Positions 272 through 53,778 of a stretch of 64,000 nt of DNA are shown here, piece by piece. The position numbers and the translations under genes are program-made. Source of the DNA: Squalus acanthias (taxonomy: Eukaryota); NCBI GenBank assembly GCA_030390025.1, contig CM059432.1, positions 7,626,001-7,690,000 of the forward strand. The letters are read 5' to 3'. The notes under the pieces are model-generated. The model saw only the letters and a program-made list of their open reading frames with translations. It was not told where the DNA came from and did no database searches. Within the stretch, counting starts at the first letter, position 1. Each line of letters opens with the position of its first letter.

Positions 272-1692
272 CTAGGGCCACTTCCTTAAGTACCCTAGGA
301 TGTAGATTATCAGGCCCTGGGGATTTATCGGCATTAATCCCGTCAATTTCCCTAACACTATTTCCCTACAAATACTGATTTCTTTCAGTTCCTCCTTCTC
401 ATTAGACCCTATGTTCCCCGACATCTCTGGGAGGTTATTTGTGTCCTCCTTTGTGAAGACAGAACCAAAGTATGTATTTAATTGGTCTGCCATTTCTTTG
501 TTCCCCATTATAAATTCCCCTGATTCTGACTGCAAGGGACCTACGCTTGACTTCTCCAATCTTTTTCTCTTCACATATCTATAAAAGCTTTTACAGTCAG
601 TTTTTATGTTCCCTGCAAGCTTACTCTCATACTCTATTTCCCCCCTCTTAATTAATCCCTTTGTCCTTCTTTGCTGAATCCTATACTGCTCCCAATCCTC
701 AGGTTTTCTGCTTTTTCTGGCCAATTTATATGTCCTCTCCTTGGATCTTATGCTATCCCTAATTTCCTTTGTTAGCTACGGTTGAGTCACCTTTTTTGTT
801 TTATTTTTATGCCAAACTGGGATGAACAAATTCTGTAGTTCATTCATGCGATCTTTGAATGTTTGCCATTTCCTATCCACCGTCAACCCTTTGAGTGACA
901 TTCCCCAATCAATCCTACCCAACTCGCGCCTCATACCATCGTAGTTTCCTTTATTTAAATTCAGGACCCTAGTCTCTGAGTCAACTACTTCACTCTCCAT
1001 CTTAATGAAGAATTCTATCATATTATGATCGCTCCAACCCAAGGGGCCTCGCACAACAAGATTGCTAATTAATCCTTTCTCATTACATACTACCCAGTCT
1101 AAGATGGCCTGATCTCTAGTTGGTTCCTCGACATATTGGTCCAGGAAACCATTCCGTATACACTCCAGGAATTCCTCCTCCACAGTATTGTTACTAATTT
1201 GGTTAGCCCAATCTATATGTAGATTAAAGTCGCCCATGATAACTGCTGTGCTCTTATTGCACGCTTCTCTAATTTCCCTTTTAATGCCATCCCCAAACTC
1301 CGTATTACTGTTTGGGGGTCTATACACCACTCCCACTAGCATTTTCTGCCCCTTGGTATTTCTCAGTTCTACCCATACAGATTCCACATCATCAGAGATA
1401 ATATCCTTACAATTGTGTTAATCCCCTCTTTAACCAGCAATGCTACCCCACCTCCTTTTCCTTTTTGCCTATCTTTCCTGAATATTGAATACCCCTGGAT
1501 GTTGAGTTCCCAGCCTTGATCACCCTGAAGCCATGTTTCCGTAATCCCAATCATATCATATTCGTTTACCTCTATTTGCGCAGCTAATTCATCCACCTTA
1601 TTACGAATGCTCCTCGCATTAAGACACAAAGCCTTCAGGCTTGTTTTTTTAACCCTCTTAGACCTTTTAGAATTATTATTTACTGTGGCCAC
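272..1692 (-). pseudogene. CR1 ORF2 (APE endonuclease and linker), frameshifted
   Basis: Endonuclease motifs are split across three ORFs. RT-region sequence continues to position 1. Confidence 0.85.
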
Positions 1693-1800
1693 ATTTGATT
1701 TAAACCCTTGATTTCTTTGTTTTTTCCTTCCTGACTTTTGCTTCTATCCTTGTTTCCCTTTCCTCTGTCTCCCTGCTCAGGTTCCCAACCCCCTGCCATT

Positions 1801-2751
1801 TTAGTTTAAACCCTCCCCCAGAGCACTAGCAAACACTCCCCCAAGGACTTCGGTCCCGGTCCTGCCCAGGTGCAAACCGTCCGATTTGTACTGGTCCCAC
1901 CTCCCCCAGAACTGGTTCCAATATCCCAGGAATTTGAATCCCTCCCCCTTGCACCATTCCTCTAGCCATGTATTCAGCTGAAATATCCTTTTATTTCTAC
2001 TCTGACTAGCACGTGGCACTGGTAGCAATCCTGAGATTACTACCTTTGAGGTCCTATTTTTTAATTTACCTCCTAACTCCCTATATTCAGCTTTTAGGAC
2101 CTCATCCCGTTTTTTACCTATATCGTTGGTACCTATATGCACCACGACAACTGGCTGGTCACCCTCCCCTTCCAAAATGTTCTGCAGCCGCTCTGAGACA
2201 TCCTTGACCCTTGCACCAGGGAGGCAACACACCATCCTGGAGTCTCGTTTGCGGCCGCAGAAACGCCTATCTATTCCCCTTACAATAGAATCCCCTCTCA
2301 CTATAGCTCTACACCTCTTTTTCCTCCCTTCCTGTGCCGCAGAACCACCCCTGGTGCCAGGAAGTTGGCTGCTGCTGCCTTCCCCTGATAAGCCATCCCC
2401 CTCAACAGTATCCAAAGCGGTATATCTGTTTGAGAGGGGGATGTCCACAGGGGACTCCTGCACTACCTGCCTGCGCCTACTACTCTGCCTGGTGGTCACC
2501 CATTCCCTTCCTGCCTGTGCAACCTTTACCTGCTGTGTGACCAACTGGTTAAACGTGCTATCCACGAGGTCCTCAGCATCGCGAATGCTCCAGTATGTAT
2601 CCATTCGCAGCTCCAACGCCACAATGCGGTCTGCCAATAGCTGCAGCTGGATACACTTCCTGCACACATGGTCATCAGGGACACAGGAAGTGTCCCCGAT
2701 TTCCCACATAGCGCAGGAGGAGCATACCACGGCACCGAGCTGTGTTGCCAT
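1801..2751 (-). CDS. CR1 ORF1 protein: N-terminal CxxC...CxxC zinc finger, coiled coil and SGNH/GDSL esterase domain (316 aa)
   Basis: Uninterrupted ATG-initiated ORF with CSSC..CRKC, GDSIVRG, HIGTND and DGLHL motifs. Confidence 0.9.
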   Translation of the reverse strand: MATQLGAVVCSSCAMWEIGDTSCVPDDHVCRKCIQLQLLADRIVALELRMDTYWSIRDAEDLVDSTFNQLVTQQVKVAQAGREWVTTRQSSRRRQVVQESPVDIPLSNRYTALDTVEGDGLSGEGSSSQLPGTRGGSAAQEGRKKRCRAIVRGDSIVRGIDRRFCGRKRDSRMVCCLPGARVKDVSERLQNILEGEGDQPVVVVHIGTNDIGKKRDEVLKAEYRELGGKLKNRTSKVVISGLLPVPRASQSRNKRIFQLNTWLEEWCKGEGFKFLGYWNQFWGRWDQYKSDGLHLGRTGTEVLGGVFASALGEGLN

Positions 2752-3607
2752 GACTTACCCTTTAATTAATTGAACTTAAATTAAATCAAATCAATCCCAC
2801 CAATTATACTATAATTAAATGATATAGGGCCCTTGTTTACCAACTGTCCCCGCTACACCACAGAGACCCTAGAAACTATAAACCACAAAATTTAAGTTTG
2901 GAAAATGGAGAAAAAGAGAAATACTCACCACCAATCACTTACCTGCTTTCTGGTGACGTCACACTTTGATTATTTTTTACTTCTCTCTCTCCCGCTCAGA
3001 TTGGTAAGCCTACCTGGTCGCTGCCGCCTTTTATAGCCGCCACCTCGCCGCTGTCGCTCCACCCAGGTCCGCCGCCTAACCATCCTAAAGTGCTTGGAAC
3101 TCCCTCCCTAAACCTCTCTGCCTCTCTACCTCTCTCTCCTCCTTTAAGGCACTCCTTAAAATTTACCTCTTTGACCAAGCTTTTGGCAGAGGTTTAGCCA
3201 GGAGAATTCTGGAGCGGGGGACCTGCACCAATTGCAGGCATGGCTGCCAATAGTGAGGAGACAGGAGGGAGGATGCACAAGAGGCCAGAGTCAGCGGAAC
3301 GCAGAGTTCGGGGGTGGGGATTGTAGGGCTCCAATAAAGTCTCTGCCCTCCCGCAACACCAAAAACAATCCTCGCCAAAGTCATGAACTGCAATTCTCTT
3401 TAACTGTGTATTCCTCCCCATCCTGCTGGATCTCTCTCCTTTAGAAAACCTCCTTATAACCCATCATTTTGACAAAGCATATGGCCACCACTCCGAATAT
3501 CTCCATTCGTTATCTGATTACACCTCTGTGAAGCGCCTTGCAACTTTTCCTAGGTTACAGGCACTATGTAAATGCAATTAGTTGTTGCTGCAATAAAGAG
3601 ACAGAGG

Positions 3608-4832: not shown

Positions 4833-5501
4833 GAAAAGAGGCATCGGCTGTGTTCAGAGCAAACCAATATTGCAGTGGGGGCCTCAAACCCGCATTAGGA
4901 CCTTTGCACATTCAAATATGTTTCAGGCAAGGTGCCCTGGACGCCTATTTCTTTGCCCTACACCAATATGGCGGGCAGCGCACTTCCAGCTCGTAATGGA
5001 ATGGAACATTTTTCTTTCCCTTGGTACCAAATTTCAGGATCAAGCGCTCCGAGGCCCAGATTAGTTATAATTTTACACTGCCTGAACGTTGGGAGAGGAA
5101 TTCTTCTGGTCGCTAGGCGCAGCTTCACTGTAAGTGTGTTTTTGAGAATATTTTCACTGTTCAGTATTTTCAGGAAAATTGGAACCATAAGGCCACCTTG
5201 CCTGGCATGAACGCTACGGGCAGGATGGGTAGGACGGCGGCGGGGGTGGGGGCGGCGAGAGGGTTGGTCGCTCCGCATTCCCGACCTGTTCTTGGGCACC
5301 CCTCCCACATCCCCCCCCCTCAACCACAAATTTAACATATCTGAATTCAGGGCGCGGGAAGGCCGCCCGCACCAGAGGCGCGCAGGCCTGATGCGAATGG
5401 CGGCGGGGGAGTTGCGTCCCGATGATGTCATCGGCACGCCATTTTAACTGCGGGCTGACGAAGAGCCGCACAGCCACCAGCCAAACAGTAGGGTCGCCAA
5501 C

Positions 5502-5695
5502 TGTCGTAAGAATGAGCCTTACGCGTGGTGAACTTAAAGTAAGCTTTAATCAACTAAAAAGGTGCTACATACAAAAGAGGTCTTACTCTATGCCTCTCCA
5601 GGATCCCACTGATCAGCCCAGTATTTATCCTGGACTAATCACAGGAAGTGATGTAATAAAGTTCGAGTCACAGGAAGCTGTATTGTGTTACCACA
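5502..5695 (-). repeat. Gypsy 3' LTR
   Basis: Matches 9787-9980 with 4 substitutions counted by eye. Confidence 0.95.
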
Positions 5696-5711
5696 TTCTC
5701 CCCCCCCAAAA
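5696..5711 (-). promoter_or_regulatory. Polypurine tract (GGGGGGGGAGAA on minus) abutting the 3' LTR
   Basis: Plus-strand ttctccccccccaaaa directly follows the LTR end. Confidence 0.85.
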
Positions 5712-5758
5712 GATTAGGAGGCCGGGATGAAGTTCGAGTCACAGGAAGCTGTATTGTG

Positions 5759-8700
5759 TTACCACATTCTCCCTCCATTTCGTAGCCGCTGGACGAGGGA
5801 GAGCCGCACCCGTTTGGGTTCTCGTAGCGGTAGAGGGCCCCTAGCCCGTTTACCCGCCGCGGGCCGTGGACCAGAGTCCGAGTGATCCAGCTCGCTCTGT
5901 GAGGGGTCAGGACGATCCTGACTGTGTACTGGTGCCCGAACGGGTGTTGGGCAGGGCTGTGGCAGATCCGTTTCCGAGCGTATGGTACGGGGTGGATCGT
6001 GGCTGCGCGTGCGAGCCTCGACGGGCTCATAGTCAGTCTGCCCCAGGTCGGCACGCTGGAGTGAGGTACCAGCCGGCGTCAGATCCAGATCGTGATGAGA
6101 GGCACCTGGCAAGCCCAGAGATGTGCCTGGTACAATATCATCCCCTGGTGTCCCTCTATGTTTCGGCGGGCAGGGAGCCAGATCCCGCAATGACACGGTA
6201 GATTCCCGACCGTCAGGATACCGAATATAGGCGTAGGTAGGGTTGACGTCAGTGAGCTCAACCTCATCTACCAGGGGGTCATTCTTAGACGCCCGAACAT
6301 ATCTTCGGAGTAGCACTGGTCCCGGTGCAGTCAGCCACGACGGGAGAGATATCCCATAGGATGAGCGACGCTGAAATCGGAAGAACCGTTCATGAGGCGT
6401 CGTATTTGTGGCGGTCGAAAGGAGGGACCGTGTGGAGTGTAATGCGTCTGGAAGTACTGCTTCCCATTGCTGGTTGGGTAGGCCCCGAGATCTCAAAGCC
6501 AGACGTACCGCATTCCAGATGATAGCGTTAAAACGCTCGACTTGCCCATTCCCGACCGGATGATAAGGCGTCGTTCTGCTGGCAGCAATACCCCGTTCCG
6601 AGAGATAGGCCTTGAGTTCTCCTGACATAAAAGAAGGGCCCCGATCCGAATGAACATAGGATGCCATGCCACAGAAAGCAAATACCTGCTCAAGGCAGCT
6701 GATAACCGTGGTCGTCAGCATATTGGGGCAGGGAAAGGCAAACGGAAAACGGGAATACTCATCGACCATGGTCAATAGATAAGTGTTGCGAGTTGAAGAG
6801 GGCAACGGCCCCTTAAAATCGATGCTAAGCCGTTGCATTGGCTGGGTCGCATGTATGAGTATACCACCTGAGGGGCGGAAAAACTGAGGTTTCAATTCCG
6901 CACAGACTCTGCAGTCCGAGCACATCTTCTTTACATCCCCGGTAGAGAATGGGAGATTTCGGGACCGCACGAAGTGTAGCATGCGAGTAACGCCTGGATG
7001 ACACAACCCATCATGGATGTCTACGAGTGTAGAGGGTGCCATGGCGGAGCAGAATGCTCGTGTGAGGGTATCCGGAGCCACATTCTCCTTGCCAGGTCGA
7101 TAGTGGATGGTGTAACCAAAAGAGGCCAATTCCAGCCGCCAAAGCTGGATTTTATTATTTTTAATTTTGGTCCGTTTTCGATTATCGAGCATGAAGGCGA
7201 CCGATCGCTGGTCCGTGATTAAGGTAAAGTGCTGGCGAGCTAGGAGATGAGTCCACTTCCGTACTGCCTCTATGATGGCTGTAGCTTCTTTCTCGACTGG
7301 AGGATAATGTAGCTCAGCCCCTTGAAAAGTCCTGGACAAAAATGCCACCGGACGACCTTCCTGATTCAGAGTGGCCGAGATCGCCACCTCCGAGGCATCA
7401 CACTCAACAACAAAAGGAAGACTCTCATCGATGGAGTGAAGAGCCGCTTTCTCCAACTGTTTTTTCAGGAGGTTAAAGGCTGCAACAGCCGCTGTGTCTA
7501 GTGGGAATGTGCTGGCCTTCAGTAGAGGTTGGATTCGGTCCGAGAAGTTAGGAATCCATTTAGCATAGTATGCAAACAGGCCGAGGGCCCGGCGCAAGGA
7601 GGCCGGATTCTTAGGTGGCGGGAGTTCTTGGAGTGGGCGAAGCCTTTCAGGGTCAGGTTTAATGATGCCATTGCCCACACAATAGCCAAGGATGTTGATG
7701 GTTGGTTGTGACTCAATGGATTTAGCCGCATTTAATGTCAAATTACGGTGCTGGAGTGCATCCCAAAATCGTTGGAGATTGGCGTCATGTTCCCGCTGAT
7801 TGCGACCTGCGACAGTAATATTTTCCAGATAAGGAAACGTATCCTTTAAGTCTTCCTGTTTGACCAGGTCATCCATTGCTCGCTGGAAGACAGCCACTCC
7901 ATTAGTGACCCCAAAGGGGAGGCGACGAAATTGATACAGCCGTCCATTGGCTTCAAAGGCCGTATACTGCTTGTCTGAGACCTTCAAGGGTACCTGATGA
8001 TAGGCACTTTTCAGATCATATGTTGAGAACACCGTGTACTCAGCCAGTTTATTAACCATATCATCGATGCGCGGCAATGGGTATGCGTCCAAGTCCGTAT
8101 ATTGATTGATGGTCTGTGAATAGTCAATGCACAGCCGTTTCTTGTGAGGTTGTAGAGGGTTCTTAACAATAACGACCTGGGCGCGCCATGGCGACGAACA
8201 AGGCTCGATGATATCCTCTGCTAAAAGCCGAGAAATCTCAGCCGCAATAAAAGACTGGTCTTCCTGACTGAAACGTCGTGACTTTGTTATAATCGGTTTG
8301 CATCGAGGAGGGATACTGGTAAACAGTGAGGGTTCATCCAGTGAAGCTGCTGACAATGCACAGAACGGTAATCGAGGTCGTATATTAGAAATAGTGAGTT
8401 CAGGTTTGGATCCGCCGAACTCAATGGTGAGCTTCTTATGCTGCTTTTGAAAATCTAGCCCTAAGATAAGATCACTACATAAGTCCTTGAGCACCGAAAG
8501 CCGGGTGGAGGGATACCTGTGACCATTAAGTGTTATTTCAACCATACAAAAGCCAGAAATTCTGGTATTAAGTGATGACTGAGCCATCGCAATTGCCTGG
8601 TCCGATGGGAAAACATGTAGCTTTAACTCTGCAACAATCTGTTCCCTAATGAAACTATCAGTGCTACCTGAGTCAATTAAGGCATCTAAAGTATGTCCAT

Positions 8701-8920
8701 TAATTGATGCTTTTGTAGCTGCATGGAATAGGTTCTGAGGACAAGCAGCTGTAATTGGTGTCGTTGCACAAAGAGTGGCTGAAACTCTAGGTGTGTTTCT
8801 TCGAGAGAAAACCCGAGAGGAAGCACGATAGATTTTAGCCGGAACATCTTGATAGGCCCTTACCGGGGCAGTTCGGTAGGACTTAGCTTGATAAGCCCTC
8901 GTAGAGGTCTTGATAGGCAA
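5759..8920 (-). CDS. Gypsy Pol: aspartic protease, reverse transcriptase, RNase H, integrase (1053-codon open frame)
   Basis: LIDSGST protease; RLCIDY, DLKSAYHQ and LPFG RT motifs with YLEN at the YxDD position; CDAS..EKEA..TDQ RNase H; H..H..C..C plus D,D,E integrase. Confidence 0.93.
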   Translation of the reverse strand: MPIKTSTRAYQAKSYRTAPVRAYQDVPAKIYRASSRVFSRRNTPRVSATLCATTPITAACPQNLFHAATKASINGHTLDALIDSGSTDSFIREQIVAELKLHVFPSDQAIAMAQSSLNTRISGFCMVEITLNGHRYPSTRLSVLKDLCSDLILGLDFQKQHKKLTIEFGGSKPELTISNIRPRLPFCALSAASLDEPSLFTSIPPRCKPIITKSRRFSQEDQSFIAAEISRLLAEDIIEPCSSPWRAQVVIVKNPLQPHKKRLCIDYSQTINQYTDLDAYPLPRIDDMVNKLAEYTVFSTYDLKSAYHQVPLKVSDKQYTAFEANGRLYQFRRLPFGVTNGVAVFQRAMDDLVKQEDLKDTFPYLENITVAGRNQREHDANLQRFWDALQHRNLTLNAAKSIESQPTINILGYCVGNGIIKPDPERLRPLQELPPPKNPASLRRALGLFAYYAKWIPNFSDRIQPLLKASTFPLDTAAVAAFNLLKKQLEKAALHSIDESLPFVVECDASEVAISATLNQEGRPVAFLSRTFQGAELHYPPVEKEATAIIEAVRKWTHLLARQHFTLITDQRSVAFMLDNRKRTKIKNNKIQLWRLELASFGYTIHYRPGKENVAPDTLTRAFCSAMAPSTLVDIHDGLCHPGVTRMLHFVRSRNLPFSTGDVKKMCSDCRVCAELKPQFFRPSGGILIHATQPMQRLSIDFKGPLPSSTRNTYLLTMVDEYSRFPFAFPCPNMLTTTVISCLEQVFAFCGMASYVHSDRGPSFMSGELKAYLSERGIAASRTTPYHPVGNGQVERFNAIIWNAVRLALRSRGLPNQQWEAVLPDALHSTRSLLSTATNTTPHERFFRFQRRSSYGISLPSWLTAPGPVLLRRYVRASKNDPLVDEVELTDVNPTYAYIRYPDGRESTVSLRDLAPCPPKHRGTPGDDIVPGTSLGLPGASHHDLDLTPAGTSLQRADLGQTDYEPVEARTRSHDPPRTIRSETDLPQPCPTPVRAPVHSQDRPDPSQSELDHSDSGPRPAAGKRARGPLPLREPKRVRLSLVQRLRNGGRMW

Positions 8921-9708
8921 ACCTTTGCAAAATTACCCTTTTTGTTGCAATGACTGCAAAACGCATTGCGAGCAGGGCAGAATTTCCGAGGGTGAAACTC
9001 ATCACCACAAAAGAAGCATTTCTTAGATTGCCAAGAGGCTGCCACAGTGGGGTCATCATCCTCTTCATCAGTGAAGTCATCAGATTGATCGTCAGGGATA
9101 AAGTCCTCCCTAATAGAGTTCACCTGTGGCCTCTTAAATTGCCTGACTGTAGTTAAGGCAGCAGACCGAGGTCTGGGCACTGTATAAAGGTCTGCATTTC
9201 TTTTTGCCAGATCTAGAGAGCAAGCCATGTCATAAGCTCTCTGAAGCTCAAGTGTCTTACTTTCCAGTAGACGCTGGCGTATAAATGGGGAGGCAAGCCC
9301 GCAGATGAAAGCATCATGGATCATTTCTTCATGGTACAGCTCAGCTGAGGCCGCCTGAAAGTTACAGTCCATACTAAGTCTGCGAAGCTCTTGGAGGAAT
9401 TTATCAATGGATTCCTCCGGCCCTTGTTGGGCTGTAGCTAGTAGATGTCTGGCATAGACCTCATTCGGTGTCTTAGTATATAGTCTCTTAAGCGTCCGAA
9501 TTGCCTCCTCGTAACTGCCCCATTCCTCGACATACTGAAATACATTCGGGGTGACACAGTTGATGAGTATCCGCAATTTTGAGTCATCATCAGCCTTGCA
9601 ATATTCGAGAAAATTGTCAAACGTGCGATACCAGTGTTTCCACACCTTACCGGCTGCTGGGGTGTTTGGGTCCAAGTCAAGACGCGATGGTTTAAGGATG
9701 TTTTCCAT
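8860..9708 (-). CDS. Gypsy Gag (282 aa) with two zinc-knuckle-like motifs
   Basis: ATG 79 bp inside the 5' LTR; capsid-like Q.PEESIDKF..LR.L...CNF; CFFCG..H....C and CSHC....N....C. Confidence 0.9.
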   Translation of the reverse strand: MENILKPSRLDLDPNTPAAGKVWKHWYRTFDNFLEYCKADDDSKLRILINCVTPNVFQYVEEWGSYEEAIRTLKRLYTKTPNEVYARHLLATAQQGPEESIDKFLQELRRLSMDCNFQAASAELYHEEMIHDAFICGLASPFIRQRLLESKTLELQRAYDMACSLDLAKRNADLYTVPRPRSAALTTVRQFKRPQVNSIREDFIPDDQSDDFTDEEDDDPTVAASWQSKKCFFCGDEFHPRKFCPARNAFCSHCNKKGNFAKVCLSRPLRGLIKLSPTELPR

Positions 9709-9786
9709 GATGGGTGATTCACTGGATCCTTAGTTCCGAGTTCGTCCAAAAAGTTTGAGTGCAAAGTTTTTCAAAGTTGATTAAAT

Positions 9787-9980
9787 TGTCGTAAGAATGA
9801 GCCTTACGCGTGGTGAACTTAAAGTAAGCTTTAATCAACTAAAAAGGTGTTACATACAAAAGAGGTCTTACTCTATGCCTCGCCAGGATCCCACTAATCA
9901 GCCCAGTATTTATCCTGGACTAATAACAGGAAGTGATGTAATAAAGTTCGAGTCACAGGAAGCTGTATTGTGTTACCACA
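9787..9980 (-). repeat. Gypsy 5' LTR
   Basis: TG...CA ends; GATAAATA TATA-like site and ATTAAA poly(A)-like signal on the minus strand. Confidence 0.95.
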
Positions 9981-10093
9981 CCAACTCTGGTTGGATGTAT
10001 CCCTGGAGGTTTCATCACATGACCTCCAGCCTCCAACCGCCCCGCCCCAGCCAAACATAATTCCCCCTCCCCTCACCATTTCTAACTAATAAG

Positions 10094-10672
10094 AACAACC
10101 ACAACTTGTATTTATATAGCGCCTTTAATGTAGTAAAACGCCCCAAGGCGCTTCACAGGAGTATTTTAAGACAAAAAAATTTGACACTGAGCCACACAAG
10201 GAGAAATTAGGACAGATGACCAAAAGCTTGGTCAAAGAGGGAGGTTTTACAGAGCATCTTAAAGGAGGAAAGAGAGGTAGAGAGGTGGAGAGGTTTAGGG
10301 AGGGAATTCCAGAGCTTAGGGCCTTGGCAACAGAAGGCACGGCCGCCAATGGTTGAGTGATTATAATCAGGGATGCTCAAGAGGGCAGAATTAGAGGAGC
10401 GCTGAGATCTCGGGCGGTGTTGTGGGGCTGAGGAGGTTACAGAGATAGGGAGGGGCGAGGGCCACGGAGGGATTTGAACACAAGGATGAAATCGAGTCGC
10501 TGCTTAACCGGGAGCCAGTGTAGGTCAGCGAGCACAGGGGTGATGGGCGAACGGGACTTGGTGCGAGTTAGGACACGGGCAGCAGAGTTTTGGATGACCT
10601 CAAGTTTACGTAGGCTAGAATGTGGGAGGCCGGCCAGGAGTGCGTTGGAATAGTCAAGTCTAGAGGTAACAA
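10094..10672 (-). mobile_element. L2-clade LINE 3' fragment
   Basis: VTSRLDYSNALLAGLP...LEVIQNSAARVLT...ITPVLADLHWLPV.QR and a (TTG)n-type tail. The same family recurs at ~3090-3190, 13095-13530, 32825-33170, 35445-35770, 40540-42210 and 57950-58285. Confidence 0.9.
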
Positions 10673-17012: not shown

Positions 17013-20000
17013 GGCCGCGAATTTAATTGCGCTGTGGGGGTGGGTTTGGAGGCGGGTCTGCTGTCAAAATCGCAAAGATTGACAGCGGGTAGGAAACCCG
17101 CTGTCAACTCGTCTCCACGCAAGTCTCCCGGGTGTCGGGTCTGTCAGCGCAGAACTGACCCGACACCAAGCGGCGGGGGAGACAATTCTGGTACTTAAAT
17201 GGCTTGTTAAGAGCCAATTTAAGAGGATTTTGAGGCTTACCTGTAATTTTACCTTCTCCCCCACTGGTTACCTGCTGTTCGGGGAACACGCCAGCTCAAC
17301 CTGGCGTGCTTTTGAGTCTGCTCTGATGTTTGTGAAAAGCTGACAGCTGCAGAAGTGGTGTCAAGGATGCCATGTTGCAGATGGTGTGTTTCAGAGCACA
17401 GAAAATGTTGGTTACTGCATTTTTAATACATATAGAGATTTCTTTAGCTTACAAGTTTTTAAATCCATCTGTATGTCCAGTGCCACCTCATTGGGAGAAC
17501 CTCTCTCACCAGTGACTGATCGCTCCTGTCATCTCGCCTGCAGCTGCCATCTATTGCAGCAACATCAGAGCCAATGAAACAATCAGACCTTGGTCCTCCA
17601 AATCCTTCCACGATCAGCCCCAACACCAACATCGCCAACCTCATCACCAACCTTCTCCGCCATCACCTGATGCTGCACTGGACACAGGCCATCAGCCGCT
17701 GACAAAATTGCTGGCCGGGAGGCCAGTGATGGCATCACCATGGCCAGATTCACTTGACGCTGTAAACCCTGGCTGCCACATGATGCGCCAGGTTGACACC
17801 ATCCCACACCAGCACCGTGAAGCATCCCTTTAATGTCCAAGCCATTCCATGCACACACATCACTATTGCGGGGGAGGGGGGGAGTTTTGACTGAACAATC
17901 ACTGGAACACAGTAAGACACTTCTCAATGTGCGCTCAGATTTGTCCAATAAGGGTCACCTTTGCAAAAAGATATTACACTGTATGACAACACATTACCAG
18001 AAACTTCACATGGACATTGGCTAAACATCTCAAGTGCCTACACTTGTGTGTTGTTAGTTGGTATGCTTGCAGTAGGATGAGGGTGAGTGTGAGGGGTGGC
18101 CAGAGAGATGGGGAAGTGATAAAGTAGGATAGAGAGGGTTGGGTGGAGGTGCAAGGTAAGTTGGTGTCCTGGGGAGGTCTCTTCTGCCCTTGGAAGGGAA
18201 GAGAACCTCCCTGCGTGCTGTGACTCTCTCCATAAGCATATGGAGGGAGTCATTGGAGAGCCTGGGTACAAGCGTTCACCTTTGTGCACCTCAATGCTGT
18301 CAAACACTGACAGAACAACTGTCAAACTCCATGTGGACGTGGTCCCTTTAAGGAAACCGGCTGATGACGCGTCATCAAATGACGTCATCAGACCCGCTTC
18401 CTGTTAATTGGCCGGAATCCTGCAGGGCGGGGCTTAACAAGGTCAATCAAAGGAAGGCTGGCTGACTGCGGGCAGGTAAGCCTCAAAAGCGAGGGGCTGG
18501 TCCGGGGGAGGGATCATGAGAGGAGGATCGGCAATCGGCAGGGGGCGGGGATCGAGAGAATTGGCAGGGGTCAGGGAGGGGAGGGGGAGAGAGAATCGGC
18601 AGGGTCGGGGGGAGGGGGAGAGAGAATCGGCAGGGTCGGGGGGGAGGGGGAGAGAGAATCGGCAGGGTCGGGGATCGGGGGAGGGGGAGAGAGAATCGGC
18701 AGGGTCGGGGATCGGGGGAGGGGGAGAGAGAATCGGCAGGGTCGGGGATCGGGGGAGGGGGAGAGAGAATCGGCAGGGTCAGGGATCGGGGGAGGGGGAG
18801 AGAGAATCGGCAGGGTCGGGGATCGGGGGGAGGGAGAATCGGCAGGGTCAGGGATCGGGGGAGGGGGAGAGAGAATCGGCAGGGTCGGGGATCGGGGGGA
18901 GGGGGAGAGAGAATCGGCAGGGGTCGGGGATCGGGAGGGGAGAGAGAATCGGCAGGGGTCGGGGATCGGGAGGGGAGGGAGAATCGGCAGGGTCAGGGAT
19001 CGGGGGAGGGGGAGAGAGAATCGGCAGGGTCGGGGATCGGGGGGGAGAGAGAATCGGCAGGGTCGGGGATCGGGGGAGGGGGGGAGAGAATCGGCAGGGT
19101 CAGGGATCGGGGGAGGGGGAGAGAGAATCGGCAGGGTCAGGGATCGGGGGAGGGGGAGAGAGAATCGGCAGGGTCGGGGATCGGGGGGGAGAGAGAATCG
19201 GCAGGGTCGGGGATCGGGGGAGGGGGGGAGAGAATCGGCAGGGTCAGGGATCGGGGGAGGGGGAGAGAGAATCGGCAGGGGACGGGGATCGGGGGGGAGA
19301 GAATCGGCAGGGTCAGGGATCGGGGGAGGGGGAGAGAGAATCGGCAGGGTCGGGGATCGGGGGAGGGGGAGAGAGAATCGGCAGGGTCAGGGATCGGGGG
19401 AGAGGGAGAGAGAATCGGCAGGGTCGGGGATCGGGGGAGGGGGAGAGAGAATCGGCAGGGTCGGGGATCGGGGGAGGGGGAGAGAGAATCGGCAGGGTCG
19501 GGGATCGGGGGGGGGGAGAGAGAATCGGCAGGGTCGGGGATCGGGGGAGGGGGAGAGAGAATCGGCAGGGTCGGGGATCGGGGGAGGGGGAGAGAGAATC
19601 GGCAGGGTCGGGGATCGGGGGAGGGGGAGAGAGAATCGGCAGGGTCGGGGATCGGGGGAGGGGGAGAGAGAATCGGCAGGGTCGGGGATCGGGGGAGGGG
19701 GAGAGAGAATCGGCAGGGTCAGGGATCGGGAGGGAGAGAGAATCGGCAGGGTCGGGGATCGGGGGAGGGGGAGAGAGAATCGGCAGGGTCGGTGATCGGG
19801 GGGGAGAGAGAATCGGCAGGGTCGGGGATCGGGGGGGAGGGAATCGGCAGGGGTCGGGGATCGGGGGGGAGGGAATCGGCAGGGGTCGGGGATCGGAGGG
19901 TGGGCTGTCGGCGAGGAATCGCTAGGGGGTGGGGGTCAACCAGGGCTCACGGATTGGTGGGGGGGGGGGAGGCTGGGGATCGGGGGGGAGGGTCGGACGG

Positions 20001-24404: not shown

Positions 24405-25299
24405 CTAATAAATTGTAAGCACAGACTGCCACCACAATCTACGTCCCCTGTCTCTTCAGCAGGCTAATGTACAGGGACCCTGAATTCCTGGGTTCTGGGA
24501 GGGTATATTGATGGTGGGTTTTGCATGGTGTAGGGCAGGACCAAGATGCGCCAGGCTTCTGCCCCGTGTCAACTGTGTCCCAAATTGCGCTGGACATGAT
24601 CAGGAAGAAGAAGCGCCCATCCAGTAAGAATTACCAGCATGTTAAATGAGGGTCCTGGGATGGGATGAAAGCAACCATTCCCAACCTGACCTGCACCCTT
24701 CTAAAAAGTGCCTGTAAATGGCAAGCGTGCCTGCCAGCACCAGGTTATAGCGGAGTTCATGGATTCTTATAGACTCTTTTAGAGTCATAGGGGTAAAAAT
24801 TCAGTTGGTTGCGCCTCCCGTTAGCGCCTTAAGAGGGCGCTAATGGGGCGCAAAGCCGCTAACGCCCGGGCGCAGCGATGTTTGCGCCGCTCGAGAACTT
24901 AACTAGAGATTGTGCGGCGGCGCTAAAACTTACCGCTGCGACCACCTGCGCGCGCAGATTATGACGTCATTCCATGGTGCAACGCCCTTGTGGCGCCCCG
25001 GAGCGGAAATTGAGTGGCGCCCCCTGCCTTACCGCCTGGCGCTTCCAACGACCGGAAGACTGGAACGCTATCAATCGCTGTGGGGCTGGGGGGGGGCGCT
25101 ATTTAAAGGGGGCCTCTTCCTGTCTTTTTCTGTGGTCGACATTTATGCACCACTCGTTCTGAGAGAGAGAGAGAGATTCGGAGAGAGAGAGAGAGACTTC
25201 TACATTGACTCAACGCTTTGTGAGGTAGTTTTGCCTATTGATCCTAACTTTGCTGCTACTTTAGTTGCTGTCCCTCATTACTTTGCTTGCAAAGAGAAT

Positions 25300-26460
25300 A
25301 TGGGGGCTGCACTGATTGGGGGCGTCGTCCTGCTCCAGCTGAATCGGAGGATACAGAGACGCAGAGAGAGAGTGGCAATGATGGCCAGACGGAGGAGGGC
25401 CATCAGGCGCATGTACAGGAGAGCTTACCCTCCCAGGGTATATCGTGAACAGCTCTCCTACATCCATATGTCCGAGGAGCTGTGTTTGCGAAGGCTGCGA
25501 TTCAGCAAGGAGGTGGTCACTGAGCTCTGCCACCTGCTGCAGCCAGATCTGCAGCCTCAACTGAGGTCCAGGACGTCTCTGTCGGTGGCAGTGAAGGTCA
25601 CAGTGGCTTTGAACTTCTACGCCACTGGCTCATTCCAAGCTGCTGTTGGGGACCTCGTCAATATCTCTCAGTTCGCGGTGCATTGCTGCATCCGGCAGGT
25701 CACAAATGCCCTCTTCAGAAGGAGACGAGAGTTCATCTCTTTCCCTATGACCCCAGACAAGCAGCGTGACCGCGCTCTGGGCTTTGCGAGGGTAGCGGGC
25801 TTCCCCATGGTGCAGGGCGCCATTGACTGCATGCATGTGGCTTTGCGTGCTCCGCGTGAGAATGCAGAGGAATTCCGGAACAGAAAGGGGTTCCATTCCT
25901 TGAATGTCCAGTTGGTCTGTGACCACAGACAGCTGATACTCGCTGTCAATGCCCACTATCCTGGCAGCTGCCACGATGCTTTTATCCTGCGCCAGACTAC
26001 TGTGGCAGAAGTTTTCGAGGCACCGCGTCAGCCAGTTGGTTGGCTTCTCGGGGACAAGGGGTATGCATTGAGCACCTGGCTGATGACACCGCTCCGTACG
26101 CCCAACACCCCTGCTGAGCTGCGGTACAATGAAAGCCATCAAGCAACCAGGAACATTATTGAGCGCACAATCGGCGTGCTGAAACAACGGTTCCGCTGTC
26201 TGGACCATTCTGGAGGAGCCCTGCAGTACTCGCCTGAGCAAGTATCGAACTTCGTAGTCGTGTGCTGCATGTTGCATAACATGGCAATCCTCAGGACCCA
26301 GCCAATGCCACCAGGCCTTGGAGCACCACCAGAGGAGGAGGAGGAAGAGGAGGAAGAGGACGAGGACGATGATCATCAGCAGCACCAAGGCGGGAGGGCG
26401 GCCCACAATGGTCAAACTGCAAGGGCCGTCCGTCAACGGCTAATAGCAAGCCGCTTCTAG
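25300..26460 (+). CDS. Harbinger (HARBI1-like) DDE transposase, 386 aa from the first in-frame ATG after the (GA)n leader
   Basis: HTH region RLRFSKEVVTELC, YATGSFQ; catalytic GAID, NRKGFHSLNVQ, PGSCHDAFI, LLGDKGY, RNIIERTIGVLKQRFRCL; acidic C-terminal tail; no stops. Confidence 0.93.
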   Translation: MGAALIGGVVLLQLNRRIQRRRERVAMMARRRRAIRRMYRRAYPPRVYREQLSYIHMSEELCLRRLRFSKEVVTELCHLLQPDLQPQLRSRTSLSVAVKVTVALNFYATGSFQAAVGDLVNISQFAVHCCIRQVTNALFRRRREFISFPMTPDKQRDRALGFARVAGFPMVQGAIDCMHVALRAPRENAEEFRNRKGFHSLNVQLVCDHRQLILAVNAHYPGSCHDAFILRQTTVAEVFEAPRQPVGWLLGDKGYALSTWLMTPLRTPNTPAELRYNESHQATRNIIERTIGVLKQRFRCLDHSGGALQYSPEQVSNFVVVCCMLHNMAILRTQPMPPGLGAPPEEEEEEEEEDEDDDHQQHQGGRAAHNGQTARAVRQRLIASRF

Positions 26461-26754: not shown

Positions 26755-28630
26755 CTACTTTTTGCCCTTCGAGGGTGATCTCCTTCCCTTGCGCACTTCC
26801 CCCCTTCTAACCCTACTGCTCCTCCGTAATGGGACCTCAGTGGCTGCAGCAAGGCTGGTGGAAGGCTGCTGCTCGTCAGACCCTGACACTGCAGATGCCC
26901 CTGAAGGATGGCCTCGACCACTTCTGGGCCTGGAGGGCCCGGCTGCAGACTGCACCAACTCTGCATGGGCGGCAGCAGTCTGTCCTACAGGCGGTGGCAA
27001 GTGCAGTGGAGAAGTGACAGTGTTGGCAGCAGGAATGCTGTCATCGTGAGAGAGGACAGCAACTCCCTGCTCGCCCGACACACTGGCACTCCCACGGGGC
27101 AGCACTTCAGCATCCGGAGCAATCTGCCGGAGAACAGATTGCTGGCCTGCTGCAGCGCGGTGACAGCCCCGGGGACATGTGCACGAACCATCGAGGTTGG
27201 CAGCAGTCTGTGCTCGCGTGGCCTCAATCTGAGTCTGCATGAGAGCAGTCAGAGATGGGATCACGGCAGCCAGTGACTGAATTGCAGCACTAAGCATTAG
27301 TGTGGCATCCGCCTGTGCTACAGCGAAGTGCTCCACACTCCTTGCCAGTGACTCAATGCATTCGGGCACCCTTCCCACTGCACCCATGAGCTCAGTGTGC
27401 ATGCCCACCGCCTGGGTGTTCATTTCTGCGATCAGCCGCTCCTCCTCTGCGTCCATTGCAGTAGGAGTGTCTGGCATAATCTCCCTCTGGGAAAAGGCCC
27501 CCGTTCTTCCCTACCCCCCCCATGGCGTTGCTGCAGCCCGCTGGGTCCTGGAGCTTCACCCTCATCAGCCCCTTCCCCTCTGCTCCCCTCCGGGGAAGGC
27601 GTGTTCCCAGTGTGGGCATGGGCTTCCTCGGGAGAGGGTGGCACTGATGCTCTGGCTTCCTCTTCCTCCTCAGCTGCAGCATCACTCCCAGTGGCAGCTT
27701 CAGGGCCCGTCTCCTCAGCTGGTGAATCACCATCTGAAAGCAGGGAGGTACAAGAGTGGCTTTAGCGTGAGGACAGGGTGGCAGTAAGGGAGGAATAAGT
27801 GCAGCGAGTTAGCAAGTTGGATTGAAAGTGTCAAAGGCTGGTGTTGTGAGGGACAAGTGGAAGGACAGAGGACAAAAAGGTGATGACCTTACCATTGCTG
27901 TCCAGAACGGGGTCGGCGTCTCCAGTGGCGACGGGACCGATCACCCGGCTTGCCACAATCCTGTGGACGCGCTCCTCCAGATCGCTGAGGGGTTGCAGCT
28001 GAGGCCGCCCTCCACCTGTCCGTTGCTGCTGTCTCCTATTATGAGCCAGCTTGGTCTGTAAGAAAAAGGACAGCATCTGAGTAAATATACAGCCATGGTC
28101 TTGCCTGATGTGCCTCCCATAGGTGAATAGCCCTTACAATATACAGCCATGGTCTTGCCTGATGTGCCTCCCATATGTGAATAGCCCTTACAATATGCAG
28201 CCATGGTCTTGCCTGATGTGCCTCCCATAGGTGAATAGCCCTTACTGTATGCAAAGTGTGGAATGTGTGTGTGTGTTTGATGAAAGGGCCATAGGTGTTG
28301 GATGAGTGTTGTGCATTGGGGTTTTAAGACCCTCTGGCCATAGAGTGAGGTTGAGATGGAGGGATGGAGAGGTATTGAGAAAAAGCCACTCACCCTGACG
28401 ACCCAAGTGAGGTCGTTGAACTTTTTGCGGTATTGAGTATGGGTCCTGGGCACCATGCTCCTGGAGGAGACGCTCTGAGCCACCTCCCTCCACACTCTTC
28501 TGAACTCGCGTGGCAAAGGCCTCCTGCCACTCTCAGGGAAGAGCATACATCGTCTGCGCTCCACTGCGCCAACCAGAGCATCCAAGGCCCGCTCGGTGAA
28601 GTGATGAGCGCGTTCTCTCACCCTCTCCAT
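26755..28630 (-). CDS. Harbinger accessory Myb/SANT-like (trihelix) DNA-binding protein, spliced: exon 1 28630-28394, exon 2 28055-27893, exon 3 from 27733; apparent frame break near 27430-27510
   Basis: Exon 1 FTERALDALV..V..RR..LF...W.EVA..V.......RT..Q.RKKFNDL; donors gtgagt and gtaagg; acceptors ttcttacag and tgctttcag; phases 0 and 1 join correctly; downstream coiled-coil and basic tail in ORF 26755-27477. Confidence 0.82.
28084..28245. repeat. 3 x 54-bp tandem repeat in intron 1 of the Harbinger Myb/SANT gene
   Basis: Units start at 28084, 28138 and 28192 and are nearly identical. Confidence 0.95.
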
Positions 28631-28970
28631 GCTTGGCAGCAAAATGGATTCACAGGTCTCTCCAGGCTGAGATTCAAGGCTGCAATGAGCAGGGTGTGGC
28701 TGGGGAGCAAGTGGCCCCCCCCCGCTTTAAGAAGTGGCCGGCGCCAGTGTGTCTGTGTTCCCTCGCTAACTGGCAGCAGCTGCGCTGCACTCGCGCGCTG
28801 AGTTAGCGCCTCACTCCTTGGCCTTTGCGCCTTAAGACAGGTGTGCAGCGCCTGATTTAGCGCTCCACTCACCTCCCGGGGCGGTAAAAGTGAAGTTTCC
28901 AGTCAGTGCCGATAATTAGCGTCCAGACGATATTTGCGCCCCAAATGGGGCGCGACCTAATTTCTACCCC

Positions 28971-48918: not shown

Positions 48919-51900
48919 TGTAAGGTTTCCAAAATTTTGCAGATCCCCAAAAACCTAAGGAATAAGGACTTTGGAACTACCTCAGAGTGATAAAAATGCA
49001 TTTGGGCCTAACCTAAGGAATTTAAGACCAAAAACCAAGTTTTGGCATTTTAAAACTATGTCTGGGCCTGTAAAGGGACAAGGAGGTGGAATCGACCTCT
49101 GTAAAAGCAGTTTGGTTATTGCAGTTAATTGCATTGTCTGGGGAACCAGGATGACCTCACTCAAGCCCCAGCAGACATTAATATTTGACAATAGACCCTG
49201 GGAGAAGACAGTCCCACCCAAAATAACAGGCCCCATCAAACCGATTACAGGGCCCATCAGAAACATGCAAAATAAAACCCACTCGGGACCATTCTATAGA
49301 AAAGACCGAGTCCAGCCTAGAAAACCAAAACATGAAATCAATCACCAGTGATCAACCAAGGAGATTGACAGGATGCAAACCATCCCAAAGGCCATTTGAC
49401 ACTTACAGAGCAGTTACTGGTAACAGGCCCGCCAAAATCATACATAGATACATAGATACATAGAAGATAGGAGCAGGAGTAGGCCATCCGGCCCTTCGAG
49501 CCTGCTCCGCCATTTAATGAGATCATGGCTGATCCTCCAATTCAGTATCCCGTCCCCGCCTTCTCTCCGTAACCCTTAACCCCTTTTGCCTGTAGAAATA
49601 TATCTAATTCCCTCTTAAATATATTTAATGAGCTGGCGTACACTGCCCTCTGTGGCAATGAGTTCCACAGGTTCACCACCCTCTGAGTGAAGAAATTCCC
49701 CCTCATTTCTGTCCTAAATGGTTTAGCCCTTATCCTTAAATTATGTCCTCTGGTTCTGTTCTCACCCGCCAAGGGAAACATTCCTTCTGCATCTAGTCTG
49801 TCTAGACCTGTCAGAATTTTATACACTTCTATGAGGTCCCCTCTCAATCTTCTAAACTCCAGTGTGTACATCCCTAAACTACATAGTCTCTCCTCATAGG
49901 TCAATCCCGCCATTCCTGGTATCAGCCTGGTGAATCGCCGCTGCACCCCCTCCATGGCAAGAACATCTTTCCTCAGATGAGGCGACCAAAACTGTACACA
50001 GTACTCGAGGTGTGGTCTCACCAGTGCCCTGTACAGCTGCAGCAAGGTATCCCTGTTCCTGTATTCCAACCCTTTTGCTATGAAGGCCAGCATACCGTTT
50101 GCCTTCTTGATCGCCTGTTGCACCTGCATGCTCGCCTTCAGTGACTGGTGTACAAGAACACCCAGGTCTCTCTGTACTTCCCCCTCTCCCAATTTATTGC
50201 CATTTAAATAATAATTTGCCCTCCCGTTCCTGCACCCAAGGTGGATAACTTCGCACTTGTCCACATTATAGTGCATCTGCCATTTATCCGCCCAATCACC
50301 CAGTCTGTCCAAATCGCTCTGGAGCTTCCTGGTCTCCTCCTCTGAGCCCACCCCCCCTCCTAGTTTAGTGTCGTCTGCAAATTTGGAAATGCTGCATCCG
50401 ACTCCCTGATCCAGGTCATTAATGTAAATTGTGAACAGCTGGGGACCCAGGACAGATCCCTGTGGTACCCCACTTGTTACTGCCTGCCATTCAGAAAATG
50501 AGCCGTTTATTCCAACTCTCTGTTTTCTATCTGACAGCCAGTTCTCTATCCACGTCAATACTTTCCCCTTTATCCCATGAGCTTCAATTTTCCATGTTAA
50601 TCTTTTATGTGGGACCTTGTCGAAGGCCTTTTGGAAGTCCAGGTACACCACATCTACTGGCTCTCCCCCATCTATTTTACCAGTTACTCCCTCAAAAAAT
50701 TCCAATAGATTAGTCAAGCACGATTTACCCTTTGTAAATCCATGTTGACTCTGTCCTATCCTGTCCCCATTTGCTAAGTGCTCCGCTATTTCATCCTTAA
50801 TGATGGACTCCAGCATTTTGCCCACAACTGATGTAAGGCTTACAGGTCTGTAATTACCTGCTTTTTCCCTACCCCCCTTTTTGAATAGTGGGGTAATGTT
50901 AGCTACCCTCCAATCCATGGGCACTTTTCCCGAGTCTAATGAATTCTGAAAAATCATACTTAGTGCATCCGCTATCTCTAGGGCCACCTCCTTCAGTACC
51001 CTAGGATGCATGTTATCAGGCCCTGGGGAATTGTCAATGAACTGAGTAGATTTGGTGGGTAGATAAGGCCATGTTCAATGGGTGAGATTGAAGGCCTGTT
51101 AAAAAACCAGTTAACGCGCTAGTAAGTCGTTACCGATTTACGAGCCCGCCAAAACCAGACAATGAACTGAGTAGATTTGGCGGATAGATAAGGCCACTTC
51201 AATTCAGTATAATTGAAGGCCCATTAAGCAGTTCAAGGTCGCAGTCCGTGGTCATCAGAAGAAGAAGAAACCAGGAAGAAGACAAAACCGAGCTGGAAGC
51301 GAGTCGGCATCGCTCACCACTCAGACACACCTGAGTCCAGCTCGTGAAGATACCACCTCGACGGACCTCCAACAACGATCCCAATACAGTCACCCGGAGC
51401 AACAAGCAGCAACAAGTCACCGACGGCTCTACGAGGTCGACCGACACACTAGACAAGGCCTAAAACCATCGCGGAAACCAAAGGCCTCAAGTAACCAACA
51501 ACCGCATATTACCCCCAACGGACCGAGTAATAGCAGGCCACCGCGACCAACTCAAGGGAAGAAAACCCGAAGAACCGCAAAGTTTCCACACTACAAACTA
51601 CTCCTGACTTACCCCTGGGTAAGATTTCTACCAAAAGACTCTAAACCCTACTCCTAACCAAAGGAAATTGGGTACTCACCTGATAGATCCAAAACGCACC
51701 CTACCGCATCAGCGGACTCGCGAAGACTGACCAGAGACGCAGGTGAAGTCCTCTACCGCATACGGGGTACGGCAGACACTAACCGCCATAAACAGCGAAC
51801 CCCAAAACCGTGATTTAGCCCAACTGTCAAAGGATTGGTGAGCATTATCCCTGGTCCTTCAAAGTCCAACTTAGCTAGTAAAGTGGGGTTGGGAGGGGTG

Positions 51901-52147
51901 AAGTATTGTTCTACTGTCATTTCCCTCGCTTGTACCAAAGTGTTCCCCACCTTTAGAGTGTTAAGAGTGTTATTATTTGTGTCTTACCTTTTAATAAAGA
52001 TTGAAGTTCTTTCATCAAACTCAGTTGTCTGCTGCACCTTTTATCACAACCCCCAAATAAGTCCAAGGTCTAGAACCAAGGGAGTGGGAGTGATTCGAAC
52101 CGCTCAGAAGTCAGAGGTGAAGCTGACACAAACCACCACCCCCTACA
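48919..52147 (+). mobile_element. Long solo LTR (~1.6 kb after removing the nested CR1)
   Basis: TGTA...TACA ends; 4-bp TSD GAAC (48915-48918, 52148-52151); AATAAA at ~51993; internal direct repeats; no coding motifs. Confidence 0.85.
49441..51035 (-). mobile_element. Young 5'-truncated CR1 with an uninterrupted RT-to-C-terminus frame (ORF 49542-51011, 489 aa)
   Basis: NYRPVSLTS, GVPQGSVLGP and FADD motifs; (TATGTATC)n-type tail. Confidence 0.93.
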
Positions 52148-53778
52148 GAACTTAACGTAATTAATATAAGTAGAGAAAAAGTACGAGAGAAACTAATGGG
52201 ACTAAAAGCTGACAAATCCCTTGGACCTGACGGCCTACCTCCTAGGGTTCTAAAAGAGGTGGCTGAAGAGATAGTGGATGCATTGGTTTTGATCTTCCAA
52301 AATTCCCTAGATTCTAGAATGGTGCCAGCGGATTGGAAGGTTGCAAATATAACACCGCTATTCAAGAAAGGAGGGAGAGAAAAAGCAGGGAACTACAGGC
52401 CAGTTAGCCTGACATCAGTCGTCAGGAAAATACTGGAATCCATTGTTAAAGAAGTGGCATCAGAGCACTTAGAATATCATAACATGATTAGGCAGAGTCA
52501 ACATGGTTTTATGAAAGGGAAATCGTGTTTGACAAATTTATTCGAGATTTTTGAGGATGTAACTAGCAGGGTAGACAAAGGGGAACCGGTCGATGTAGTA
52601 TATTTGGATTTCCAAAAGGCATTCAATAAGGTGCCAAATGAAAGGTTATTACACAAGATTAGGGCTCATGGGATTGGGGGTAATATAGTAGCATGGATAA
52701 AGGATTGGCTAATGGACAGAAAGCAGAGAGTAGGGATAAACGGATCTTTTTCAGGTTGGCAGGCTGTAAATAGTGGGGTGCCGCAAGGATCAGTGTTGGA
52801 GCCTCAGCTATTTACAATCTATATTAATGACCTAGATGAAGGGATCGAGTGTAATGTATCCAAGTTTGCTGATGATACAAAGCTAGGTGGGACAGTAAGT
52901 TGTGAGGAGAACACAAAGAATCTGCAAAGGGATATAGATAGACGAAGTGAGTGGGCAGTAAGGTGCCAGATGGTGTATAATGTAGGGAAATGTGAGGTTA
53001 TTCACTTTGGTAGGAAGAATAGAAAAACAGAATTTTTTTTAAATGGTGAGAAACTTTCAAATGTTGGTGTTCAGAGAGATTTGGGTGTCCTCGTGCAAGA
53101 AACACAGAAAGCTAGAATGCAGGTACAGAAAGCAATAAGGAAGGCAAATGGCATGTTGGCCTTTATTGCAAGGTAAGAGTAAGGAAGTCTTGCTACAATT
53201 GTACAGGGACTTGGTGAGACCACACCTGGAGTACTGTGCACAGTTTTGGCCTCCTTATCTTAGGAAGGATATGCTTGCCTTGGAGGCGGTGCAACAAAGG
53301 TTCACTGGATTGATTCCTGGGATGAGAGGGCTGTCCTGTGATGAGAGATTGTGTAGAATGGGCCTATACTCTCTGGAGCTGAGAAGAATGAGAAGTGATC
53401 TCATTGAAACATACAAAATTCTGAAGGGGATTGACATGGTAGATGCTGAGAGGTTGTTTCCCCCTGGCTGGAGAACTAGGGGGCATAATCTCAGAATAAG
53501 GGGTCGGCCTTTTAAAACTGAAATGAGGAAGAATTTCTTCACTCAGAGGGTTGTGAATCTTTGGAATTCTCTGCCCCAGAGGGCTGTGGATGCTGAATCG
53601 TTGAGTATATTCAAGGCTGAGACAGATAGATTTTTGGACTCGAGGGGAATCAAGGGATATGGGGATAGGGCAGGAAAGTGGAGTTGAGGTCGATGATCAG
53701 CCATGATCTTATTGAATGGCGGAGCAGGCTCGAGGGGCCGTATGGCCGACTCCTGCTCCTATTTCTTATGTTCTTATG

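Follow-up and report, generated by a model that had tools for sequence, protein, structure and literature searches.

How does a long terminal repeat (LTR) retrotransposon begin reverse transcription if there is no site for a tRNA just past its 5′ LTR? This question was raised by an element in a 64,000-nt stretch of the Squalus acanthias genome (hereafter the window), in which a tRNA-type primer binding site (PBS), starting with TGG as the complement of 3′-CCA, is lacking and the nearest TGG is 39 nt past the 5′ LTR. Self-priming is regarded as a mark of the Tf1/sushi chromoviruses and of one plant Copia lineage, and some Repbase entries on animal Gypsy families mention it. To our knowledge it has been demonstrated experimentally solely in fission-yeast Tf1. 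From comparisons of sequences within the host genome and beyond, we consider it probable that the lineage to which the window element belongs primes reverse transcription with its own RNA and not with a tRNA.

The window element is a Ty3/Gypsy (Metaviridae) LTR retrotransposon: it has the hallmark TG...CA LTRs, 5-bp target duplication and polypurine tract, its pol domains are in the order PR-RT-RH-IN and its best match among solved structures was Ty3 Gag-Pol (E 2e-59). Comparison with the protein atlas returned generic reverse transcriptase (RT)/RNase H/integrase clusters only, scanning the element against Rfam produced no match exceeding chance, and a scan of viral contigs found zero relatives. 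The window copy is defective because its gag and pol are in separate frames; in 23 of the 30 loci examined from its own family (family A, see below) the frame opened by gag runs uninterrupted through the sequence retrieved. The duplicate of the LTR's initial 40 nt (5727-5766) sits 71 nt ahead of the 3′ LTR, and can be considered a family trait since it is also found in another family-A copy (L259), with a similar joint in contigs of run X14. The features of the element are collected in Table 1.

Table 1. Features of the retrotransposon and their positions in the window.
Feature	Position	Strand	Remarks
Whole LTR retrotransposon, 4,479 bp	9980-5502	minus	Young Ty3/Gypsy
Target-site duplication, 5′ copy, GTTGG	9981..9985	minus	Identical 5-mer at 5497-5501
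5′ LTR, 194 bp, TG...CA	9787..9980	minus	Differs from 3′ LTR at 4 positions
TATA-like box ATAAATA	9907..9913	minus	Common to families A, B and C of the host genome
LTR arm AGTTGATTAAA, putative self-primer or terminal (3′) part of a longer primer	9830..9840	minus
Poly(A)-like hexamer ATTAAA, terminates the LTR arm	9835-9830	minus
Predicted cleavage site, would release primer 3′-OH	9829..9830	minus	Based on strand polarity and on how Tf1 primes (PMC7175516)
Predicted hairpin H1, abuts the arm:PBS helix	9817..9829	minus	Folding; absent from the original prediction
Predicted U5 hairpin H2, includes GTAAG/CTTAC	9790..9808	minus	Folding; absent from some families
Spacer of one base (A) between LTR-terminal CA and PBS	9786	minus
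PBS TTTAATCAACT, complement of the LTR arm, without TGG	9775..9785	minus
gag frame, two zinc-knuckle-like Cys/His motifs	8860..9708	minus	Ends at 8860 in the window copy
pol frame: protease, RT, RNase H, integrase	5759..8932	minus	No chromodomain or SH3_Tf2-1 match
Repeat of the LTR's initial 40 nt, purine-rich tract before it	5727..5766	minus	Contains the pol stop codon
Polypurine tract	5696..5707	minus
3′ LTR, arm repeated at 5555-5545	5502..5695	minus	No PBS downstream
Target-site duplication, 3′ copy	5497..5501	minus

Other features of the window include, shortly upstream of the 5′ LTR, a dispersed repeat (10094-10414) that has several copies in the window, a G-rich minisatellite at 18526-19811 whose unit is about 37 nt, and a DDE_Tnp_4 transposase frame (24907-26460, plus strand) and a Myb/SANT-like frame (27941-28726, minus strand), a combination that we take as typical of a PIF/Harbinger DNA transposon. 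LINE-type repeats are numerous across the whole window; the fragments at 776-2754 (minus), 49542-51074 (minus) and 52127-53176 (plus) comprise an endonuclease frame beside a GDSL-esterase-like frame, plus two RT frames. Elsewhere in the genome, integrase C-terminal matches (L275-L294) belonged to several other LTR-element lineages, and no chromodomain was recognized in the frames inspected by eye.

What is found at the position of the PBS is an 11-mer, TTTAATCAACT (9785-9775), that starts one base past the 5′ LTR and exactly complements AGTTGATTAAA (9840-9830) within that LTR, the pairing stopping at 11 nt with no extension on either side. The original prediction had drawn attention to this arrangement, an A and then the complementary 11-mer in place of TGG, and we confirmed it in both coordinates and sequence. 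It also stated correctly that the arm overlaps an ATTAAA poly(A)-like signal, the hexamer forming the arm's end, and that a GTAAG/CTTAC hairpin lies in the loop (9807-9803 with 9795-9791), which reaches 7 bp in the predicted fold. In that fold the arm:PBS helix has a probability of about 0.9 and encloses hairpins at 9829-9817 and 9808-9790, and the 96-nt region has a z of -2.35, with 6 of 200 shuffles folding equally well. Similarly, in the set of 22 representatives described below, arm:PBS pairing was predicted with a probability of at least 0.78 in 20 when the upstream leader was included, and a helix directly 3′ of the arm was predicted in 18 (second loop base paired, P at least 0.5), a count that has no shuffled control beside it.

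Is this complementarity maintained among copies of the element? In family A, for which we fetched 30 loci, the best of 841 candidates in the 3.7-Gb genome and including the window copy, both strands of the pairing are identical in all 30 loci at 30 distinct insertion sites, an identity that demonstrates conservation but offers no covariation. Two families with different LTRs, B and C, were found by searching with related Gag proteins. Family B has a 13-bp duplex, with 11/11 pairing in 29 of 30 loci, and family C has a 12-bp duplex, with 21 of its 30 loci pairing at 11/11 positions, six at 10/11 and one at 9/11 (two were unscorable). Pair 12 of the duplex is A-T in family B and C-G in family C, and the pairing is present in four families of the host genome.

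Additionally, a compensatory double change from T-A to C-G has become fixed in a subfamily of family B, B2. An arm that matches the changed PBS exactly is found in 24 of the 38 B2 copies carrying this PBS, nine of the 38 have the older base in the arm and five another variant, and the older PBS base at that position occurs in none of the 26 B2 copies retrieved via a changed arm. All nine copies with the older (T) base in the arm were fetched, and of the seven in which the 3′ LTR was visible six have the matching arm there; likewise, 3/3 other decayed arms keep the matching arm in the 3′ LTR. Because the 3′ LTRs retain the matching arm, the mismatches in B2 look like CpG decay that followed insertion. 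A second PBS position is changed in 23 copies, of which 22 bear uncompensated single mutations, as is expected after insertion. The remaining one, a family-B copy (L241, G000:C3218:42700-47990), has complementary transversions in its 5′ arm and PBS while the arm of its 3′ LTR is unchanged, from which it follows that template switching between the inverted repeats, at the DNA level, may yield some concerted changes without selection.

Beyond the host genome, a metagenome scan gave 80 loci, of which 31 included the Gag start and 27 sufficient upstream DNA. A perfect inverted repeat of 10-18 nt was found at the same place, one base past the LTR-terminal CA, in 24 of these 27 testable relatives, and 0-1 of 40 shuffles per locus matched the real repeat. 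Among the exceptions, the 3′ LTR of L187 contains a perfect arm, L216 has a fold-back of ~13 bp with G-U pairs, unrelated in arm and PBS sequence, about 90-30 nt upstream of its Gag start, and L202 is degenerate. After removal of seven near-duplicates, L202 and L216 and addition of the four host-genome families, the set comprised 22 representatives with 14 distinct PBS 11-mers. A normal TGG PBS in other copies had been named in the original prediction as evidence that would count against it, and none was seen: all 22 PBSs start with TTT.

In this set 236 of 242 cells form Watson-Crick pairs with the element's own arm, relative to at most 209 in 100,000 permutations of the partners. In a MAFFT alignment of the 22, 96.1% of cells are paired and changes on both sides affect 49 cells and 9 of 13 pairs; 0/500 shuffles reached the observed pairing percentage or covariation score, and slid registers gave 19-48%. 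These covariation figures are not probabilities, because the 22 sequences are related, and the pairing register was originally set from the inverted repeat itself, yet RT identity of the relatives to the window copy drops to about 50%. An RT tree (37 rows of lineage members only, excluding rows of fewer than 120 residues) shows just that the families are diverse. Named relatives, compared as proteins only, come from cnidarians, molluscs, crustaceans, a nematode, a tunicate, hagfish, rays and a catshark. Both compensatory change between the two 11-mers and conservation of their pairing across the family had been proposed as tests of the original idea, and both were observed.

How, then, might the paired arm be used? 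We propose that the arm of the transcript pairs with the PBS, over 11 bp in the window copy and 10-18 bp in its relatives, with a small hairpin abutting this helix, and that the RNase H encoded by the element would, in analogy to Tf1, cut right behind the terminal AAA of the arm (9830|9829). An RNase H domain is present in pol. The predicted position of the cut follows from polarity: as the last A of the arm pairs with the first base of the PBS, the primer must end at 9830, and the 3′ end of the arm coincides exactly with the required start of the minus strand. The 5′ piece would remain paired, its 3′-OH would start minus-strand synthesis, and with the cut at 9830|9829 the strong-stop template would be 44 nt long. 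The roughly 15-20 nt from the cut to the poly(A) site would act as the repeat for strand transfer, and where the arm carries the hexamer, concealment of the 5′ poly(A) signal may be an added advantage.

Where does the RNA itself begin? A start or cleavage near 9840 had been expected; our analysis moves the predicted cut to 9830|9829, and 9840 would be the start only in a strict Tf1 geometry. In each of the four host-genome families the TATA-like box precedes the arm by 73-91 nt, a distance that does not fit an RNA start at the arm. Contigs from three runs extend over this region, but RNA ends cannot be read from contigs. If we assume the usual spacing, the position of this box suggests that the RNA starts some 40-60 nt before the arm, near 9883 in the window copy. 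We had also considered the first A of the arm as an initiator-type start, and dropped it because pairs 12 and 13 covary too, which implies that in most families the RNA reaches further 5′. As to the primer, we lean, though not strongly, toward a leader of 50-70 nt paired only at its 3′ end over the capped first 11-16 nt of the RNA.

A major question arising from the conservation of the duplex is whether it exists for priming at all. It is feasible, although in our estimation unlikely, that the duplex is real but regulatory, concealing the 5′ poly(A) signal or acting in packaging, and is melted by another primer. In models with the PBS transcribed the hexamer is unpaired at 0.00-0.17 in the 5′ LTR vs 0.10-0.86 in the 3′ LTR, and a canonical AATAAA or ATTAAA terminates 13 of the 22 arms, both of which speak for a regulatory role. 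However, the other 9 of the 22 arms keep their pairing without a canonical hexamer, the sole canonical hexamer of one relative (L142) lies in the loop, and the modelled hexamer is still 0.18-0.64 unpaired before the PBS has been transcribed. Moreover, the partner strand is always exactly at the primer position, and alternative primers do not fit there. Masking of the 5′ poly(A) signal by the duplex, raised as a possibility in the original prediction, is plausible from the modelled folds, but it cannot explain the duplex in general since just 13/22 arms end in a canonical hexamer.

If the duplex does prime, must the primer come from the same RNA molecule and the same end of it? The arm is also present in the 3′ LTR (5555-5545) and in every solo LTR, and covariation is blind to the difference between cis and trans, so an element RNA acting in trans, such as a transcript of a solo or 3′ LTR, or the genomic RNA's 3′ end after trimming, could in principle be the primer. 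We judge this to be quite unlikely: the cis fold has a modelled probability of about 0.9, a primer from the 3′ end would need to lose its poly(A) tail plus about 15-20 nt more, and the known precedent, Tf1, is cis.

A third explanation brings a tRNA back into the process. The host genes for tRNA-Thr(AGT/TGT) contain AGTTGGTTAAA in the D-loop, which forms 10 Watson-Crick pairs and one G-U pair with the window PBS, the commonest of the set, and the arm, likewise the commonest, is together with its next two bases (9828-9840) identical to the tRNA-Thr D-loop (L261) at 12 of 13 positions. Could a 5′ fragment of this tRNA, cut in the D-arm after nucleotide 23-24, be the actual primer and the LTR arm a look-alike that guards the site? 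Some Copia elements are primed by internal tRNA fragments (PMC10886601), and half of our PBSs (11/22) pair with tRNA-Thr at all 11 positions when G-U is counted (225 of 242 cells over the set). In terms of Watson-Crick pairs, though, tRNA-Thr achieves 196 of the 242 vs 236 for the own arm, and the other 11 PBSs have one to three true mismatches to tRNA-Thr while pairing with their own arm. The CC needed for a perfect match to the GG of tRNA-Thr is found in 0/22 PBSs, no exact 11-mer in a tRNA D-loop context was among the 50 matches listed, and the anticodon-arm context was at chance level (8 vs 6 in the control).

The comparison with tRNAs covered Thr and Ile, via targeted patterns, and the host tRNA-Ile(AAT) was found to carry AGTTGGTTAGA; an Rfam tRNA search, with 14 of 30 loci scanned, yielded Lys and Cys genes for the most part. 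Complementarity between the PBS and a host tRNA or its fragment had been named in the original prediction as a finding that would overturn self-priming, and the near fit of the tRNA-Thr D-loop goes part of the way toward it, though across families the fit is poorer than that of the arm. We hence consider priming by the tRNA-Thr fragment very unlikely, and the resemblance of the arm to tRNA-Thr may be due to chance or may be a trace of the origin of the lineage. Priming of this vertebrate element without tRNA, as originally proposed, is well backed by conservation and compensatory changes across families, evidence that is comparative in kind and has to be read beside a nearly complementary segment of tRNA-Thr. 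Lastly, that the inverted repeat is a product of chance or an artefact of a single insertion has a negligible probability: nine of the arm's 11 bases are A or T, but only 101 of 200,000 mononucleotide-shuffled LTRs contained a perfect 11-nt complement to any 11-mer beginning 0-5 nt after the LTR, and the compensatory changes across families refute it.

What would self-priming by this lineage mean? It would mean that tRNA-free priming in animals arose again or is older than believed, it would provide a second natural system for studying RNase H cutting of an RNA duplex and a possible coupling of priming to poly(A) control, and it would explain why such elements fail annotation of a tRNA-based PBS. 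Such elements would presumably also evade host control by 3′ tRNA fragments. While the principle of self-priming is already known, it is likely that it is found here in a lineage without a chromodomain. A more elaborate scenario is possible, and we offer it tentatively: a widespread animal Ty3/Gypsy lineage outside the chromoviruses may have evolved self-priming independently of Tf1 and with its own geometry, in which the RNA would start well upstream, an internal arm ending in a poly(A) signal would pair with the PBS, a single cut would both free a long 5′ primer and remove the 5′ poly(A) site, an unusual YxDN RT would extend the primer, and the arm might descend from a captured tRNA-Thr D-loop primer.

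The window lineage may resemble the Mag lineage, or Cigr-1 clade, which we take to be a candidate home for it, and Mag-type elements are compact, with a single frame, short LTRs and a double Cys/His knuckle in Gag. Cigr-1, which occurs in tunicates and molluscs, is placed under Mag in the supplement of PMC6238403. In the literature searched, neither self-priming nor a YxDN motif was reported for the Mag and Cigr-1 clades, and a search for YxDN in the retrotransposon literature gave nothing relevant. The RT motif ends in DN and not DD in 45 of 54 aligned Pol proteins of the lineage, with DD in eight, and the catalytic motif of the window copy (P0002, near residue 368-371) departs from that of its relatives. 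We found no recognizable description of priming in this non-chromovirus lineage in the literature searched, outside which lie subscription journals and Repbase Reports; the latter may name the clade or the trait.

Comparable arrangements have been described outside Tf1/sushi. In the plant Copia elements TAR, Houba and Osr-1 it is predicted from a complement of at least 10 bp between the PBS position and the 5′ LTR (PMC6317226), so the trait has been reported outside Tf1/sushi, although these elements differ from ours in superfamily and host. Fungal GalEa Copia elements with a ‘Conserved Hairpin Site’ likewise have no tRNA PBS and a conserved hairpin at the PBS position, but differ in that both arms are downstream of the LTR and no primer derives from the LTR (PMC5445492). 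Self-primers are also predicted for the plant Tcn1 and TAR lineages and are described for the Tf1/sushi group of yeast and vertebrates (PMC6317226, PMC4600332), whose chromoviruses are known from fungi, vertebrates and non-seed plants (Butler et al. 2001, cited in PMC6317226 and 10.1101/2022.12.06.519325). The suspicion that self-priming animal Gypsy families may already have been catalogued was thus justified as far as vertebrate Tf1/sushi elements are concerned (PMC6317226).

Is the window element simply a member of that group? We found no Chromo or SH3_Tf2-1 match in the window Pol (P0002) or in the full-length relatives P0135, P0171, P0198 and P0207, no chromo family was listed for the 120 Pol homologs shown, and a search of the host genome with PF24626 for chromovirus references gave weak matches from other lineages. 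Tf1 RNA forms a pretzel of three duplexes around the PBS, of which the flanking duplexes are required (10.1101/2022.12.06.519325); for counterparts of these flanking duplexes permuted partners were as good in 9,174 and 15,047 of 20,000 cases, and local hairpins are predicted instead. Unlike Tf1, the window lineage has no chromodomain, lives in animal hosts and has an RT motif that is mostly YxDN; its TATA-like box, 73-91 nt upstream, suggests that the arm is not the 5′ terminus of the RNA, and 13/22 of its arms end in a poly(A)-like hexamer. As in Tf1/sushi elements, which usually have a single gag-pol frame, its PBS complements a segment of the 5′ LTR. The closest parallel is with Tf1 and Tf2 of Schizosaccharomyces pombe and Tj1 of S. 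japonicus, which similarly lack a tRNA PBS and have instead one of 11 nt that complements part of the 5′ LTR (PMC7175516, PMC4600332), and in which the primer would be released by a cut past the paired part; Tf1 pairs the initial 11 bases of its RNA with the PBS, and RNase H cleaves this RNA between bases 11 and 12 (PMC7175516). The simplest reading of these likenesses and differences is that the window element, which by the features tested is not a Tf1/sushi chromovirus, would nonetheless work like Tf1.
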